The notes beneath the pieces were generated by a model, which had not been told where the DNA came from, did no database searches, and saw only the letters and a list, made by a program, of their open reading frames with translations. The position numbers and the translations under genes are program-made. Shown piece after piece: positions 3,281 through 15,087 of a stretch of DNA of 23,702 nucleotides. The stretch is from a virus (Duplodnaviria; Heunggongvirae; Uroviricota; Caudoviricetes): IMG/VR virus record IMGVR_UViG_2645727555_000014, one strand, 5' to 3'. Numbering within the stretch: the first letter of the stretch is position 1; each line of letters starts with the position of its first letter.

Positions 3281-3934
3281 CTATCCTTTCTTGAAATCGA
3301 AGTTGCTAGCAGTGGCCTGAAAGGTTCCTCCTGCCTTGAAAGCTATGTCTCCGTTAGCGGTGACAGCAATATTTTCCCCTTTAACATTGATGTTGTTGGC
3401 TGATTTGACGTTAACACTCCCTCCTGCATTCACGATTACATCAGCCGGACCAATGATATATATCTGCCCGGACTCATTCATGCCAATCCTTGAGCCTGCT
3501 GCCGTATTGGCAATTTCATAGCCGCCACCAGCAGTTCGTACTTCAAGAATATTGTTGCGGTGAATAACGAAGTCTTTCGTTGCTGAGATTTTGGGGCGGG
3601 GAGGTGCTCCATCTACTTCCGGCGGCGTCCAGCCGTTGCCTTTGCCAGATGCTTCTGGTGCAACGTTTGGAATTCCTCCCGGTGCATCCTGAGCGGCACC
3701 AACTATCATTGGGCGTCTGGTGTCTATTCGACCGTTAACATCTAAATAAGGAAACTCTACCCAGACCAGGTCACCTTTGACTGTGGGTACAAAAGCGTTT
3801 CCGATGGGTAACAGGTATTCCGCCCAGGGTAGATCGTCATCAGGAACGCCATTCCAGTCAGGTAAAACACGGACTTGAGCACGCATAAGCCCTGCCGGGT
3901 GCACAGTTCCAACAATTTGCGCTCTACGCTTCAT
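3281..3934 (-). CDS. phage protein with gp5/gpV-like N-terminal OB-fold (putative baseplate spike-like), C-terminal Gly/Asn/Val-rich repeat region
   Basis: N-terminus GTVHPAGLMRAQVRVLPDWNGVPDDDLPWAEYLLPIGN...KGDLVWVEFPYLDVNGRIDTRRPMIVGA resembles the OB-fold of phage baseplate spike proteins. C-terminus has repetitive NVKSANNINVKGENIAVTANGDIAFKAGG. ATG 3934 overlaps the upstream stop (ATGA). Confidence 0.45.
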   Translation of the reverse strand: MKRRAQIVGTVHPAGLMRAQVRVLPDWNGVPDDDLPWAEYLLPIGNAFVPTVKGDLVWVEFPYLDVNGRIDTRRPMIVGAAQDAPGGIPNVAPEASGKGNGWTPPEVDGAPPRPKISATKDFVIHRNNILEVRTAGGGYEIANTAAGSRIGMNESGQIYIIGPADVIVNAGGSVNVKSANNINVKGENIAVTANGDIAFKAGGTFQATASNFDFKKG

Positions 3935-4914: not shown

Positions 4915-5682
4915 TCACCCCATAGATATCGAGGTTTCGGTAATAATACGTTTTGCGTCCAACTCCCATGCTGTGATCACGTCTGCAATCACACTTATCG
5001 GCGCTTGTGTGGCATAAATACGCTCTTCTCCAATTGGTGCTGAAACATCCGTAAAGCCGACTTCTTTGGAATCCTGTATCGAGCAAATCAGCGGGACCGG
5101 GACACGAACAAGGTGAGTGGTTGCTTCAAATTGTGTACCTGTCATCAGGCGAAGCCGTGCGCCCAGCGAATTACACATCAGACTCATGGTCGCTTTATCA
5201 GTTGCCATTAACGTAACGTCATACGTCAGAATGGCCTGGGTGTATTCCAGTTCTGCTAAAGGCATTCCGGTATCCGGTTCGCAAAAACTGGCTACTTTTT
5301 TGCGGTCAATCTGCTGATCATCGTTGATATAATTGATATCCATAGTGCGTGAGATATTGACCAGGGGGAGAGCATCCCGGTTAATGTTCTGGTTTTCAGG
5401 TTTTCTCCCTTGCCCGGCATTTGCGCGACGAACTGCTTTAAGAAACTCGATCGCATTGTCGAAACGGGCCACATAGACACGCTCTGCTGGTGGACGATTC
5501 AGGAATGACGCAAAGCGTTTTTCTTCCGGCGCGGGGGCCACCAGTAAGATATCAGAAAAAATGTTGCTGATTAGCGTCGCAAACGCGTTATCCACGTTTT
5601 CAAAGCCCGTGGTCTGGAATTTTCCTGTGCGTGAGGTTTGCCATTCACCTGTTCGCGCCAGGAGGGTTTTATTTGAAGTCAT
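4915..5682 (-). CDS. hypothetical phage protein (255 aa)
   Basis: ATG at 5682 overlaps the upstream stop (ATGA). No family recognised. Confidence 0.55.
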   Translation of the reverse strand: MTSNKTLLARTGEWQTSRTGKFQTTGFENVDNAFATLISNIFSDILLVAPAPEEKRFASFLNRPPAERVYVARFDNAIEFLKAVRRANAGQGRKPENQNINRDALPLVNISRTMDINYINDDQQIDRKKVASFCEPDTGMPLAELEYTQAILTYDVTLMATDKATMSLMCNSLGARLRLMTGTQFEATTHLVRVPVPLICSIQDSKEVGFTDVSAPIGEERIYATQAPISVIADVITAWELDAKRIITETSISMG

Positions 5683-6470
5683 TCGATCACTCCGTTTTGA
5701 GTCGTATCAAAATTCCTAGCAGGTATGCAGTAGTAAAGCGAACCAACATGCTGTGTGCCGTAGCTAAAAATACGGTGCACGTACCACCAGCGGCGCGCTA
5801 CGCCGTTTACCATCTCTTCATTCCATTCAAGAATTGAGCCGACGGGGACGTTATTTGCTGCAATACGCAGAATCAGAACATCATCGGTTAAGCCATCCTG
5901 CTCACCGTCTGCGTCAATCGCATGGAAAGAGTCACGCCCGTCAGGGTTATCCAGCACATAAACGATTTCAGGTTCCTGGTAAGTCAGTTCGCGTTGGTTG
6001 TTATCCAGTTCAGTGAATGACTCTTCTCCTGTTTCGTCGCTGACTACCCCATATGTGCCAACATCTGGTCGATATAAGAGAGCCTGAAACGCGTCTGGGC
6101 TGGATTCAATAATCAGCATCCAGTCTGCGCGGATTTGGTCGTTAAAGGCTTTATGCCCGTTATAGCGTGCTTTTAACTGTGGAGTCGGTTCTCTGCCAGC
6201 CAGGGAAGATGGAAGTATGGCTATATCTGATTCGCCAGCATCCGGAGTAAGGCCACCGTTGCTATCAGCAAAATTATCATGGCTATCAGCTTTGGCGGCG
6301 GGTTGCTCTTCCAGAATGCTGAATGAATCCGAACCTGTATTGCCATGTTCCGGCGCGCCTCCTGCATTCGCTTCAATCGGCGCTGGCGTTTCTCTCTGCG
6401 TGCTGTCATGTTCTGACTCCTTACTTGCCAGGTTTGCATCGTCAGCAAACCATTCGTCAAAACGGCCCAT
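5679..6470 (-). CDS. hypothetical acidic phage protein, first gene of the leftward operon
   Basis: ORF runs to 6482 with a TTG; start set at ATG 6470 preceded by AGGA. Low-complexity acidic central region. Stop overlaps the next start. Confidence 0.5.
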   Translation of the reverse strand: MGRFDEWFADDANLASKESEHDSTQRETPAPIEANAGGAPEHGNTGSDSFSILEEQPAAKADSHDNFADSNGGLTPDAGESDIAILPSSLAGREPTPQLKARYNGHKAFNDQIRADWMLIIESSPDAFQALLYRPDVGTYGVVSDETGEESFTELDNNQRELTYQEPEIVYVLDNPDGRDSFHAIDADGEQDGLTDDVLILRIAANNVPVGSILEWNEEMVNGVARRWWYVHRIFSYGTQHVGSLYYCIPARNFDTTQNGVIE

Positions 6471-13140: not shown

Positions 13141-14082
13141 TTAACTAACAATCCAGTCCGTAGCAACAACATCCTCTGGAGCTAAATCAATCGCATGGAT
13201 TTTCCCATCCCGGATAGTGCGCCAGTGCTTTCGTGATCCACCTTCGGGCCACACCCATACACCTTCAGGCCAGGATGCTCGACGGCATACGATTGCATAG
13301 CCTGTTTTAATCCTCTCTCTGGCGGTATGCAACGACAGGTTTGCCTTTGGACTTTCAGGCACAGGATGGTGGATTGCCTGAAACATCCCCATCTTTGGAT
13401 GATACCAGCGTTTATTGCGTGGTTCTGCCTCCGACATCACCTGCTTAAAGGCTTTCCGGAAGGGGGCCAGGGCCACAATGGAGCGTCGCGCAAGCAAACC
13501 ATCGGGAGTTAAAAACTCATGCGTATCGGTGGGAATCCGGTAAGCGTTGACCAGGTTGCGGCATTTGGCTTCAGTCAGGCCACATTTCGCCGCCAGCTGG
13601 CGGTAGCCAATGTAGCCTTCCGGAATATTGCCTTTCTTTATTTGCTCGAGTGTTTCAGCGACCATCGATACTTGTGCTGATACCTCGGCTACCTGGGCAT
13701 TTACGGCGTTGATCCGGCGTTCATGCTCAAGATGCATTTGCGCCATTTCAGCCAGGATTTCGGCTTTTGATTTTAACTGTACCCGGGCATTCTCCAGTTC
13801 GCGCCAGCGGTCCACCAGCCGGGCGGTAAATTCGGGAGAGAGCTGCGCGACGACGACAATACTATCGCGCTTGCCTTGTTCGCCTTCGAAGACGTAAGCC
13901 TCGACACTACGGCGTAGTCCTAAATTATTGATTTTTTCGAAAACCTCAATTTGAGGAAATCGGACAACGCCGCCTTTGGCTAATGTCTCAATAGTGCGTT
14001 TCACATTGTCATGACGCTTACCTACCAGTTCTGCGATCTCAATACTGGTCATTGTCGCTTTGCGAGAGATGGGCAGATTCAT
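13141..14082 (-). CDS. phage antirepressor, Rha family N-terminal domain with C-terminal extension
   Basis: 313 aa; N-terminal TMTSIEIAELVGKRHDNVKRTIETL matches the phage regulatory protein Rha family signature as I recall it. GGAGG SD; ATG overlaps the stop of the upstream small ORF (TGATG). Confidence 0.8.
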   Translation of the reverse strand: MNLPISRKATMTSIEIAELVGKRHDNVKRTIETLAKGGVVRFPQIEVFEKINNLGLRRSVEAYVFEGEQGKRDSIVVVAQLSPEFTARLVDRWRELENARVQLKSKAEILAEMAQMHLEHERRINAVNAQVAEVSAQVSMVAETLEQIKKGNIPEGYIGYRQLAAKCGLTEAKCRNLVNAYRIPTDTHEFLTPDGLLARRSIVALAPFRKAFKQVMSEAEPRNKRWYHPKMGMFQAIHHPVPESPKANLSLHTARERIKTGYAIVCRRASWPEGVWVWPEGGSRKHWRTIRDGKIHAIDLAPEDVVATDWIVS

Positions 14083-14297: not shown

Positions 14298-14455
14298 ATT
14301 GGCAGCCTCCTTTGACTGTGAACGATACCACCGCCGAAGAGACCAATCTTACTGGCGGTGGACTGTGTGGAGTTGGTCTTACCGGCGTCAAAGGGAACCG
14401 GCGCTTCCGAAGAAGCCACCACACAGCCCACCATTGATAGGCGTGCGAGTGCGCC
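14298..14455 (-). promoter_or_regulatory. highly structured leader / candidate regulatory RNA upstream of the antirepressor operon
   Basis: On the transcribed (minus) strand: 13/14-bp long-range helix (14357-14370 with 14419-14432), GCUUC-UUCG-GAAGC hairpin (14403-14416), an 8-bp stem ccaccgcc/ggcggtgg (14328-14335 / 14354-14361) that competes with the long helix, and GAUUGGUCUC in the loop of that stem. Confidence 0.35.
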
Positions 14456-14460
14456 GACAA

Positions 14461-14483
14461 CAAAAAAGACGCTTGTGGCGTCT
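14461..14483 (-). terminator. rho-independent terminator (minus strand)
   Basis: Minus strand reads AGACGC-cacaa-GCGTCT followed by TTTTTTG. About 105 nt downstream of the small minus-strand gene ending at 14589. Confidence 0.5.
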
Positions 14484-14588
14484 ATGTGTCGCCTTTGACA
14501 TTACCGGGAGACCAATCCCGGCACCCGTTTTTCTAAGGTGCCGTAGAAATATACCCCACGATAATGCCAGGGCGCAACAGTCAGTATT

Positions 14589-14756
14589 TTATGCTTTGGC
14601 GGATTTCTTCCGGGCTTGCTTGCAGGCGTAGGCCATTGCTTTAGCTTTCACTTCATCCAGCTTCCCGGTGATCACTTCTTTTCCGAGAGTGACAAACCAG
14701 TCATAGCAACCGCCAGTAATGTTCTTGATTTGAAAGTTGAGGTAGCGAACAGTCAT
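14589..14756 (-). CDS. small hypothetical protein (55 aa)
   Basis: Below the ORF-track size cutoff; found by eye. GGGGGTG SD about 7 nt upstream of ATG 14756, stop TAA at 14589-14591. Product MTVRYLNFQIKNITGGCYDWFVTLGKEVITGKLDEVKAKAMAYACKQARKKSAKA. Confidence 0.45.
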   Translation of the reverse strand: MTVRYLNFQIKNITGGCYDWFVTLGKEVITGKLDEVKAKAMAYACKQARKKSAKA

Positions 14757-14887
14757 TTTGACACCCCCAGCGCGAGTAAAGAATGCAGATTATCGCGTGA
14801 GTGGTGGACGACGAGTGATGGGAAAAGACTGTAGCTGTTCATAGTGTTGTGACTCCTTGCTTTCGGAGCCGCCATCGACTGTTCCAC

Positions 14888-14980
14888 GGTCTGGCGGCGG
14901 CGCAATAAAGGCTGGAACACCGTGAGTCAACGGGGGCTTTTCAGCCACCTATATTGCACCGCCATAGGTCTGGCGGCGGC
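14888..14980. repeat. two copies of a 14-bp direct repeat GGTCTGGCGGCGGC (each followed by CAATAA-like sequence) in a ~250-bp non-coding region
   Basis: Exact copies at 14888-14901 and 14967-14980, spacing 79 bp. No ORF of significant length on either strand in 14843-15087. Confidence 0.6.
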
Positions 14981-15087
14981 AATAATACGAAAAACTAAAC
15001 AGTTTGTCTCAAAAAGTTGACCGGTGTGCCAATCAGTAGTGAATGTACATCGGAGAAATTTACAATTCAACTTAAAATGTTAGAAAA

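Follow-up and report, generated by a model that had tools for sequence, protein, structure and literature searches.

A C4 antisense RNA and an IsrK-like leader upstream of icd and a Rha-type antirepressor gene: a probable immI control module of a D6-like phage-plasmid

Known systems and comparison with the present locus

In the annotated P1 record, a promoter, a1/b1, c4, a2/b2, icd and ant follow each other in this order. C4 RNA matures through RNase P cleavage at a GGW motif (PMC5320573); its b' segment occludes the ribosome-binding site and its a' segment gives specificity (PMC5320573; PMC12197685). In the Salmonella prophage Gifsy-1 (isrK - orf45/STnc1160 - anrP), IsrK binds Hfq, reads through its own terminator, is complementary to the processed RNA STnc1160 located downstream, and acts in trans to switch on translation of the antirepressor; it has been called a structural homologue of P4 seqA (PMC4825925).

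We analysed a stretch of 23,702 nucleotides (the window; record IMGVR_UViG_2645727555_000014). An earlier note had pointed to a structured region in it as a possible regulatory leader, antisense target or small RNA acting on the antirepressor. This is borne out by our analysis. The region contains a gene for a C4 antisense RNA, the target sites of this RNA in two pairs (a and b) and an IsrK-like leader RNA (Table 1). Very probably it is the module of RNAs and sites that controls a P1-type immI (secondary immunity) operon on the minus strand of a D6-like phage-plasmid. Both RNA families match the minus strand only, i.e. the strand of icd and ant. By homology with P1, the module would silence the phage antirepressor gene; the feature is real, though of an ordinary kind. 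Its novelty is low because c4, icd and antirepressor homologues have already been published for D6-like plasmids (PMC6799933).

Table 1. Features of the putative immI module and its surroundings. Positions are those of the window.
Feature	Position	Strand	Evidence or remark
Second, diverged C4-like RNA (tentative)	14890..14969	minus	Rfam RF01695, 37.7 bits, below threshold 45; E 8e-6 (351-nt search)
Candidate sigma-70 promoter of leader	14548..14577	minus	sequence and positional homology
IsrK-like leader RNA	14462..14541	minus	Rfam RF01394, 60 bits vs threshold 50, E 9e-11
Leader hairpin 1	14541-14521	minus	predicted fold of 80-mer
Leader hairpin 2, a1 in loop	14521-14504	minus	predicted fold of 80-mer
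Target site a1, UUGGUCU	14509..14515	minus	core of decamer 14508-14517; perfect 7-nt complement of a'
Target site b1, GUCAAAGG	14492..14499	minus	perfect 8-nt complement of b' loop CCUUUGAC
Intrinsic terminator, AGACGC-CACAA-GCGUCU + UUUUUU	14462..14483	minus	stem 14483-14467, then six-U run; hairpin -7.8 kcal/mol
C4 antisense RNA gene	14351..14438	minus	Rfam RF01695, 75.3 bits vs threshold 45, E 2.6e-13
C4 b', CCUUUGAC	14387..14394	minus	hairpin-2 loop
C4 a', AGACCAA	14373..14379	minus	single-stranded junction between hairpin 2 and 3' arm of closing stem
Alternative hairpin presenting a2 in loop	14328..14361	minus	8/8 pairs
Target site a2, UUGGUCU	14346-14340	minus	loop of alternative hairpin; perfect 7-nt complement of a'
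Target site b2, GUCAAAGG (14316-14309), with icd Shine-Dalgarno	14306..14316	minus	perfect 8-nt complement of b'
icd, 71 aa	14082..14297	minus	56% identical to P1 Icd, 96% to D6 Icd
Antirepressor gene, 313 aa, Rha N-terminal domain	13141..14082	minus	Pfam Phage_pRha, E 2.8e-8

The locus shares with P1/P7 immI the succession of promoter, a1/b1 leader, C4, a2, b2 at the icd ribosome-binding site, icd and overlapping antirepressor gene. Also common to both are the Icd product, the three-helix fold of C4, in which hairpin 2 has b' in its loop and a' is part of the junction, and an a2 hairpin that uses the 3' arm of C4. Unlike in P1/P7, the antirepressor has a Rha domain, falls into PHROG 63 and is not related to Ant1/2, and the leader scores as IsrK, not as P1-type c4-a1b1. 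No C1 operator or sim genes were identified beside the promoter, where ref and small ORFs are the neighbours. The a/b sequences, UUGGUCU and GUCAAAGG, differ from UUGACAG and GUUAGUG of P1.

A matching order of elements was found by sequence and Rfam comparison in D6, Gifsy-1 and Stx2 phage F039, the latter two without a separate icd ORF; in F039, both RNAs are already labelled in GenBank. In Gifsy-1, too, an IsrK-type leader forms two hairpins, the second of which holds an a-site in its loop, and ends in an intrinsic terminator; a C4-family RNA comes next, and then an antirepressor gene with a b-site at its ribosome-binding site. The promoter spacing is identical as well. In contrast to the present element, Gifsy-1 is a lambdoid chromosomal prophage and not a plasmid prophage, it lacks icd, its b2 lies directly on the anrP Shine-Dalgarno sequence, the "orf45" frame overlaps the C4 gene, and a/b are UUGGCG and UCACCG. 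In D6 and D6-like plasmid prophages (MF356679; pYU39_89), DNA identity is 87% over 751 nt, the Rfam matches are the same, and the genes likewise come in the order mat, simB-like, pmgF-like, ant, icd, RNA module, orf85/86 and ref. D6 nevertheless carries another C4 allele (a' GUCUCAA, b' CCUUUUGC) and all four targets change to match; the closing stem differs as well, and terminator and C4 lie 20 nt closer together in the present element.

The immunity system of satellite phage P4 (CI RNA, seqA/seqC) resembles the module in logic. CI RNA, also a small RNA, likewise arises by processing of the leader of its own target operon and pairs with two complementary sites, which flank it upstream and downstream; its effect, however, is premature transcription termination of replication genes and not occlusion of an icd ribosome-binding site. 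The sar RNA of P22 is a cis-encoded antisense RNA, made from the opposite strand across the ant start. By base pairing where ant translation begins, this small RNA holds down antirepressor synthesis, and it is listed as acting in trans (PMC12197685). The earlier note had named both P22 sar and P1 c4 as precedents, and the region turned out to be the latter system. Neither RNA family matches the strand opposite to icd and ant, and a promoter scan yielded no convergent promoter. Unlike sar, the regulator lies on the same strand as its target, would be excised from the operon transcript and has two short discontinuous pairing segments.

Genes and RNA elements of the module

The operon downstream of the region had been described as a Rha antirepressor operon. 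It does contain a Rha-type antirepressor gene, but its first gene is icd. The icd product is, by its sequence, a homologue of the host cell-division inhibitor Icd (PHROG 1426, E 9e-41; RefSeq name "Icd-like"). Neither Icd nor the small ORFs have a Pfam match, and PHROGs gives only family matches without function for them. The antirepressor belongs to PHROG 63 ("anti-repressor Ant", E 1.3e-62). The stop codon of icd and the start codon of the antirepressor gene overlap as TGATG, which suggests translational coupling of the two genes. The order c4, icd and coupled antirepressor gene is thus that of a P1-type immI operon. BLASTP comparison with P1 Ant1 gave E 0.10, i.e. no significant similarity to Ant1; the antirepressor cargo is therefore not conserved with P1.

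All structural elements that the earlier note had listed were recovered on the minus strand at the positions it gave, far beyond chance. The long-range helix between GGUGGGCUGUGUGG (14432-14419) and CCACACAGUCCACC (14370-14357) is paired at 14 of 14 positions (13 Watson-Crick pairs and one G.U), and a repeat search returned the same arms. The tetraloop hairpin GCUUC-UUCG-GAAGC occupies 14416-14403. An 8-bp stem joins CCACCGCC (14361-14354) with GGCGGUGG (14335-14328); since positions 14357-14361 are common to this stem and the long helix, the two are mutually exclusive. The decamer GAUUGGUCUC occurs exactly twice in the window (14339-14348 and 14508-14517, both on the minus strand), each time in a hairpin loop; chance expectation is 0.06, and two copies were found in none of 100 shuffles. 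Folding of the 301-nt minus-strand RNA gave -129.7 kcal/mol, compared with -97.5 +/- 5.7 for shuffled sequences (z = -5.7). A tRNA/tmRNA scan of the window found none, so the region is not a tRNA-like integration site.

Two further properties had escaped notice. The two decamer copies, which contain C4 target site a (a1 upstream and a2 downstream of C4), can pair with a stretch of the RNA between them that is single-stranded, and a second site, GUCAAAGG (site b), is also repeated (14499-14492 and 14316-14309).

The leader matches the IsrK model over its full length (positions 1-77 of 77), terminator included; for comparison, Gifsy-1 itself scores 79.3 bits. In the predicted fold of the 80-mer, two hairpins are followed by a single-stranded linker carrying b1 and then by the intrinsic terminator. 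A hairpin with U-run is present at the matching position in D6-like, P1-like, Gifsy-1 and Stx-phage relatives. The c4-a1b1 model RF03163, which was built on P1-type leaders, gives only 17.6 bits here against a threshold of 46.7 (P1, 51 bits; Gifsy-1, 48.1 bits). Despite this low score, c4-a1b1 architecture and a1/b1 sites are present, and the IsrK-like leader is the counterpart of the P1 c4-a1b1 leader.

The candidate promoter of the leader is composed of a -35 hexamer TTGCGC (14577-14572), an 18-nt spacer and a -10 hexamer TATATT (14553-14548), with a predicted start at G 14541 after 6 nt. The same geometry occurs in Gifsy-1 PisrK (TTGACA-18-TATATT-6-A), Stx2 phage F039 (TTGACT-18-TATATT-6-A) and P1 P1c4. 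A strict consensus scan did not report this promoter because its -35 hexamer matches the consensus at only 3 of 6 bases. We thus infer it from positional homology together with a moderate consensus match.

The C4 match likewise spans the complete model (positions 1-87 of 87). Mature C4 is predicted, from homology to the C4 of 77 nt annotated in P1, to extend over 79 nt (14432-14354). Its 15-bp closing stem, to which the long-range helix described above corresponds, encloses the UUCG hairpin (14416-14403) and hairpin 2 with the b' loop. The position where RNase P is predicted to cut (14432) carries a GGU motif, and the closing stem is followed by GCCA. The 5' arm of the alternative a2 hairpin is the 3' arm of the closing stem, and the two structures are mutually exclusive because of this shared arm.

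Co-variation of C4 with its target sites

Related loci were collected from genome contigs (6) and viral contigs (80). The set used for co-variation comprised 70 unique upstream regions, in which C4 occurs in 13 variants and a/b in at least 10 combinations. Base pairing was scored in 17 representatives. The closing stem of C4 is 100% paired in them, with 8 pairs changed on both sides, and in hairpin 1, 4 of the 5 pairs have changed on both sides. The three-helix fold of C4 is thus backed by compensatory changes. The a2 hairpin is also kept through such changes, in D6-type (GCUACCGC/GCGGUAGC) and P1-type sequences (88% of cells paired, three pairs changed on both sides).

Sites a1/b1 repeat a2/b2 exactly and show the same complementarity to C4. 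Direct complement search in the 70 regions revealed that the four target sites follow a' and b' of C4 in every class; the only exceptions are G.U wobbles, confined to the L005 class, and a single variant (L053) that is mismatched at a1 and at no other site. In the 17 representatives, 91.8% of cells are paired, compared with 34-46% in slid controls, and 27 pairs have changed on both sides. The joint change of a'/b' and the four sites is direct comparative evidence for their pairing. "Not paired" cells in four P1-group rows are alignment artefacts, since MAFFT set a/b sites of these rows one or two columns out of register; by direct complement search, P1-group sites are perfect. RNAduplex predicted unrealistic full-length duplexes of C4 with its targets, and 2 and 6 of 500 shuffles were as good. 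As this is weakly informative, target pairing rests on co-variation instead.

Site b2 overlaps the icd Shine-Dalgarno sequence AAGGAGG, which lies 8 nt before the ATG. The distance from the start of b2 to the ATG is 19 nt in the present element and in the D6-like and L005 classes, and 18 nt in the P1 type. Because L053 tolerates a mismatched a1 and keeps a2/b2 matched, a1 may be dispensable and the downstream pair may be under stronger constraint.

Proposed switch, alternative readings and significance

Experiments on P1 and Gifsy-1 suggest how the module may work. Transcription would start at about 14541 from a constitutive promoter near 14577-14548. The first 80 nt would form the IsrK-like leader, in which a hairpin loop exposes a1, a linker carries b1 and the intrinsic terminator stands at the end. 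Read-through transcripts would contain C4; as in P1, RNase P is expected to cut ahead of the GGU at 14432 and so release a stable RNA of about 79 nt. The b' loop CCUUUGAC of this RNA would pair with b2, and its junction segment a' (AGACCAA) with a2, both in the mRNA of the same operon. By analogy with P1, covering of the icd Shine-Dalgarno sequence at b2 would block icd translation, so that the coupled antirepressor would not be made, and the untranslated mRNA would also be terminated by Rho. With the antirepressor off, lysogeny and superinfection immunity would be kept. The a/b sequences would set immunity specificity; heteroimmunity to D6 is predicted, since both a and b sites differ from those of D6. 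Copies a1/b1 on the short leader most likely compete for C4, as a decoy, or refold the read-through mRNA. The leader would thus probably be the positive arm of the switch, as IsrK is in Gifsy-1.

The ranking of the two RNAs could also be reversed, with the leader and its a1/b1 as the main regulator and C4 as a secondary one, as has been proposed for Gifsy-1 IsrK. The silent read-through mRNA would then pair a1/b1 in cis with its C4 segment, and the short terminated leader would open it in trans for translation of icd and the antirepressor. We regard this as possible but somewhat doubtful; it overlaps with the C4-based explanation and differs only in which RNA is limiting. The IsrK match including the terminator, promoter geometry identical to that of PisrK and the a1/b1 copies complementary to C4 all agree with it, and Gifsy-1 IsrK, for which alternative structures A and B are described, activates anrP translation in trans at least 100-fold (PMC4825925). 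On the other hand, P1 genetics identifies c4 as a repressor of ant, the heteroimmunity of P1 and P7 has been mapped to C4 and the sites that it targets (PMC12197685; PMC5320573), and a2/b2 of L053 are matched though its a1 is not. A purely cis-acting leader, i.e. an attenuator or riboswitch whose exclusive helices sense a ligand or ribosome position without any trans-acting RNA, is extremely unlikely. The mutually exclusive helices (C4 closing stem and a2 hairpin) are real and conserved and a terminator lies upstream, but this terminator precedes the alternative helices and is not one of them. Moreover, no riboswitch family matched even at E <= 1, and co-variation of loop and junction nucleotides with four distant sites is a signature of intermolecular antisense pairing.

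Could the region encode a protein instead? Two ORFs do exist: a plus-strand frame of 110 aa (14299-14631), annotated as orf84 in the D6 GenBank record, and a minus-strand "orf45-like" frame beginning at a conserved AUG (14434). RefSeq also places a partial "hypothetical protein" over the C4 gene, and translation of Gifsy-1 orf45 was reported to be necessary for coupling to anrP (PMC4825925). The plus-strand frame, however, displays no codon-position bias, with substitutions spread evenly over codon positions 1/2/3 (e.g. 25/24/24 in comparison with the D6 type) and indels that are not multiples of three, and it is broken in about 40% of related variants (to at most 66 aa in about 30 of 70). The minus-strand frame varies from 14 aa in P1 through 39 in D6, 45 in Gifsy-1 and 110 here to 119 in L005, with unrelated sequences. 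The pattern of variation is that of compensatory base pairs. Neither frame was retained as a conserved protein, and a coding role is very unlikely; the verdict of "no convincing ORF" in the earlier note holds.

A second, diverged C4-like RNA was detected upstream of the module (Table 1). It is conserved in 29 D6-like loci, whose 18 unique copies vary too little for covariation analysis. Its candidate targets are UGGAACA (14886-14880) and GAGUCA (14855-14850), the latter at the Shine-Dalgarno sequence of a small ORF with ATG at 14842. This RNA may thus have its own a/b-type sites at the ribosome-binding region of two small ORFs (ATG 14842; 14756-14589). As these ORFs lie just upstream of the IsrK-like/C4 unit, read-through from the upstream unit could feed or gate the main switch. 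A two-tier antisense cascade in D6-like immI is a speculative reading, which we consider rather unlikely. Equally speculative is a separate idea concerning a and b alleles, of which about seven each occur in mixed combinations, the Stx-phage allele among them. Sites a and b may behave as independently exchangeable modules; if true, a combinatorial immunity code would span P1-like, D6-like and lambdoid phages.

The regulatory system itself is already known and the current view of its mechanism is unchanged. The main value of the finding lies in annotation of phage-plasmids that are widespread in E. coli and Salmonella and often have genes for resistance or virulence as cargo. RefSeq/GenBank records of such phage-plasmids leave both RNAs unmarked and place spurious hypothetical CDSs there, such as a partial pseudo-CDS over C4 or D6 orf84 on the opposite strand. 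Gifsy-1 IsrK/STnc1160, P1 c4-a1b1/C4 and the elements of Stx phages can be seen as one regulatory cassette placed on different antirepressors, and recognition of the module would allow mutual immunity or heteroimmunity of plasmid prophages to be predicted from a/b sequences of 7 nt and 8 nt.

RNA families and genes of the module

When the whole window was scanned with Rfam at curated thresholds, a check proposed in an earlier note on the sequence, only two matches exceeded threshold: C4 antisense RNA and IsrK. Both lie on the minus strand within 14298-14588, the region described there as densely structured RNA. All elements listed in that note are present, read on the minus strand. The long helix has 14/14 positions paired (one G.U), and a repeat search returns the same arms. 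It forms the closing stem of C4 and encloses the UUCG hairpin, which is C4 hairpin 1. The 8-bp stem, with 8/8 pairs, cannot coexist with the long helix because five bases are common to both. The IsrK-like RNA ends in the terminator, a hairpin with six U after it. The 301-nt minus-strand RNA folds 5.7 SD better than dinucleotide shuffles. There are exactly two copies of the decamer GAUUGGUCUC in the whole 23.7 kb, against 0.06 expected by chance, and 0/100 shuffles had two.

The window belongs to the D6-like plasmid prophages. Over this region, identity is 99% with a 92.8-kb E. coli plasmid and 87% with phage D6, which shares the gene order. The first ORF directly downstream of the RNA module is an icd homologue, whose stop codon is overlapped by the ATG of the antirepressor ORF (TGATG). 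The Rha-type antirepressor ORF of the window is intact (313 aa); the closest public relative, plasmid pZ1323HEC0010-2, has a truncated pseudogene annotated in its place (5188-5883).

Features of the immI-type module and its upstream region
Feature	Position	Strand	Remarks
Candidate leader promoter	14577-14541	minus	TTGCGC-18-TATATT-6-G; positional homology
IsrK (RF01394)	14462-14541	minus	60 bits, threshold 50
a1	14515-14509	minus	UUGGUCU, exact complement of a'
b1	14499-14492	minus	GUCAAAGG, exact complement of b'
Terminator	14483-14462	minus	
C4 antisense RNA (RF01695)	14351-14438	minus	75.3 bits, threshold 45
Long helix	14432-14419 / 14370-14357	minus	
Hairpin GCUUC-UUCG-GAAGC	14416-14403	minus	
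C4 b'	14394-14387	minus	CCUUUGAC, hairpin-2 loop
C4 a'	14379-14373	minus	AGACCAA, junction segment
8-bp stem (a2 hairpin)	14361-14354 / 14335-14328	minus	CCACCGCC / GGCGGUGG
Decamer copies	14339-14348, 14508-14517		
a2	14346-14340	minus	UUGGUCU, exact complement of a'
b2	14316-14309	minus	GUCAAAGG, exact complement of b'
icd homologue, 71 aa	14297-14082	minus	56% identity to P1 Icd; "Icd-like" in RefSeq
Antirepressor ORF	14082-13141	minus	Rha N-terminal domain; PHROG 'anti-repressor Ant', E about 1e-62
Second C4-like RNA	14890-14969	minus	
29-aa ORF	ATG 14842		
55-aa ORF	14756-14589		

Pairing of C4 with its targets

The a' segment of C4 is exactly complementary to UUGGUCU, the core of the decamer, in both copies; the repeated loop decamer is therefore an antisense target. 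The repeat was correctly noticed earlier, but its partner within C4 and the second pair of sites, b1 and b2, had been missed. Site b2 extends into the icd Shine-Dalgarno sequence AAGGAGG. The curated P1 record gives the order P2c4/P1c4 promoters, a1, b1, 77-nt C4 RNA, a2, b2, icd and ant1/2, and the window carries the same parts.

In P1, the a1/b1 region has its own Rfam family, c4-a1b1 (RF03163), in the same clan as C4. The c4-a1b1 and IsrK models match the same bases in Gifsy-1, where a C4-family RNA follows 25 nt further on and a2 and b2 lie on the anrP ribosome-binding site. IsrK, the P1 leader and window 14541-14462 share two hairpins, the second of which presents the a-site in its loop, then a linker containing the b-site, and a terminator. 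Given this common layout and the overlapping Rfam models, the three are thus the same element. The candidate leader promoter corresponds in position to TTGACA-18-TATATT-6-A of Gifsy-1, where the IsrK model starts at the corresponding position, and to TTGACT-18-TATATT-6-A of Stx2 phage F039.

Using alignment of Icd, 86 related loci were gathered. Their upstream regions fall into 70 distinct sequences and their C4 RNAs into 13, and each region was searched directly for the longest complement to its C4's own a' and b'. All four sites (a1, b1, a2 and b2) are perfect over 7-8 nt in the six D6-like classes and in the four of P1/P7-like type. The alleles differ: a' GUCUCAA with UUGAGAC and b' CCUUUUGC with GCAAAAGG in the D6 type; CUGUCAA with UUGACAG and UCACUAAC with GUUAGUG(A) in P1; CUGCUAA with UUAGCAG and UCGUAAGU with ACUUACG(A) in the L008 class. 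Gifsy-1 and F039 add two more classes obeying the same rule. The L005 class, of which NZ_PTRE01000134 is an example, pairs with single G.U wobbles: a1 is perfect and a2, b1 and b2 have one wobble each. In locus L053 (IMGVR_UViG_2778261639_000014), a2, b1 and b2 match and a1 is mismatched: the leader carries UUGAGAC, yet C4 a' is GUUCCAA and a2 UUGGAAC. Judged from its sequence, this leader appears to be recombinant; the mismatch at a1 suggests that a1 is less tightly constrained than a2 and b2.

Compensatory changes, a further check proposed in the note, were found both in the stems and in the C4-target pairs. In an alignment of 17 sequences, 91.8% of cells are paired when intramolecular and C4-target structures are combined, versus 34-46% with partners slid, and 27 pairs are changed on both sides. 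The unpaired cells belong to four P1-group rows, misplaced by MAFFT by a column or two, in which the sites are perfect by direct search. Pairing reaches 100% in the closing stem of C4, where 8 pairs are changed on both sides. The same kind of support was obtained for pairing of a1/b1 with a'/b' and for the mutually exclusive a2 hairpin (GCUACCGC / GCGGUAGC in the D6 type; CCUGCCACC / GGUAGCAGG in P1, 8/9 positions), which is therefore a conserved feature and not a coincidence.

Two immI-type modules of differing specificity occur together in some phage-plasmids or genomes: L047 (two icd matches), L005 with L009 on one contig, and L006 with L007 in one genome. This is consistent with the second c4/icd region described in pYU39_89 (PMC6799933). 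Two contigs labelled 'MAG: Bacillota bacterium' (L004, JAFAFU010000035.1; L008, JAFAFU010000019.1) carry enterobacterial P1/D6-type icd and C4; the label probably reflects mis-binning or contamination of metagenome-assembled genomes.

Other readings of the region and a second C4-like RNA

The earlier view that the region holds no convincing ORF stands. A protein from the plus-strand ORF 14299-14631 (D6 orf84) is rejected: substitutions fall evenly across the three codon positions, indels have lengths not divisible by three, and about 40% of variants have an interrupted frame. A conserved AUG at 14434 opens an ORF equivalent to Gifsy-1 'orf45'; its length varies between 14 and 119 aa, the sequences are unrelated, and it is no conserved protein. 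In the L005 class this ORF continues in frame into icd (119 aa). A cis-only attenuator or riboswitch would leave co-variation with four distant sites unexplained, and the Rfam search returned no riboswitch or attenuator family. A cis-antisense RNA of the P22 sar type is ruled out by strand. The C4 and IsrK-like RNAs are marked in neither the pZ1323HEC0010-2 nor the D6 record. In the former, the C4 gene is covered by a partial pseudo-CDS, 'hypothetical protein' (6176-6235, window 14375-14434); in the latter, the opposite strand bears an ORF of 99 aa (orf84, 3304-3603). Both look spurious.

Further upstream, a permissive search revealed a second C4-like RNA, which scores 37.7 bits with RF01695 and falls short of the threshold of 45 (E 8e-6 from a 351-nt search). 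It has the three-helix layout, and CCA follows the closing stem. UGGAACA at 14886-14880 is the complement of its junction UGUUCCA, and GAGUCA at 14855-14850 that of its loop UGACUC; the latter site lies within the Shine-Dalgarno region of a 29-aa ORF that is followed by a 55-aa ORF. It is kept in 29 D6-like loci, nearly invariant and with too little variation for covariation. From its sequence, it may be a second tier of antisense RNA, lying upstream of immI. It is flanked by the two copies of a perfect direct repeat of 14 nt, GGTCTGGCGGCGGC (14888-14901 and 14967-14980); in the minus-strand RNA, the upstream copy is an alternative to the downstream copy as partner of the closing-stem 5' arm. 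A terminator-like hairpin (15018-15035, minus) follows ref, and just downstream of it is a promoter-like GAGACA-17-TATTAT (14982-15010, minus). This promoter-like site could start a transcript that includes the small ORFs as well as the second C4-like RNA, and possibly reads into the immI leader. A perfect 11-nt inverted repeat, TTACTGGCGGT / ACCGCCAGTAA (14349-14359 and 14709-14719, 349 nt between arms), makes the C4 3' end and tail complementary to a stretch of the same RNA strand that lies within the 55-aa ORF; this may be chance.

Probable immunity function

The module is already known: both RNA families are curated in Rfam, the GenBank record of F039 labels the same RNA pair, and c4, icd and antirepressor homologues were reported in D6-like plasmid prophages (PMC6799933). 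Protein comparison revealed no relatedness of the Rha-type antirepressor to P1 Ant1. This a/b allele, and the cassette joined to such an antirepressor, are variations within a known kind.

In P1, the operon transcript is cut by RNase P at a GGW motif to release C4, b' occludes the ribosome-binding site, a' provides specificity, and heteroimmunity with P7 comes down to a few base differences (PMC5320573, PMC12197685, PMC2190699). By analogy, GGU at 14432 would be the GGW motif here, and C4 would act as the negative arm. Block of icd translation in P1 reportedly leads to Rho-dependent termination before ant (Biere, Citron and Schuster in 1992). In Gifsy-1, some transcripts end at the IsrK terminator, and the short IsrK RNA, complementary to the processed downstream RNA STnc1160, switches on in trans antirepressor translation from read-through mRNA (PMC4825925). 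The leader of the window is probably likewise the positive arm, as C4 decoy and/or remodeller of read-through RNA. Neither the a nor the b sequence of the window element is that of D6, so heteroimmunity between the two is expected at immI.
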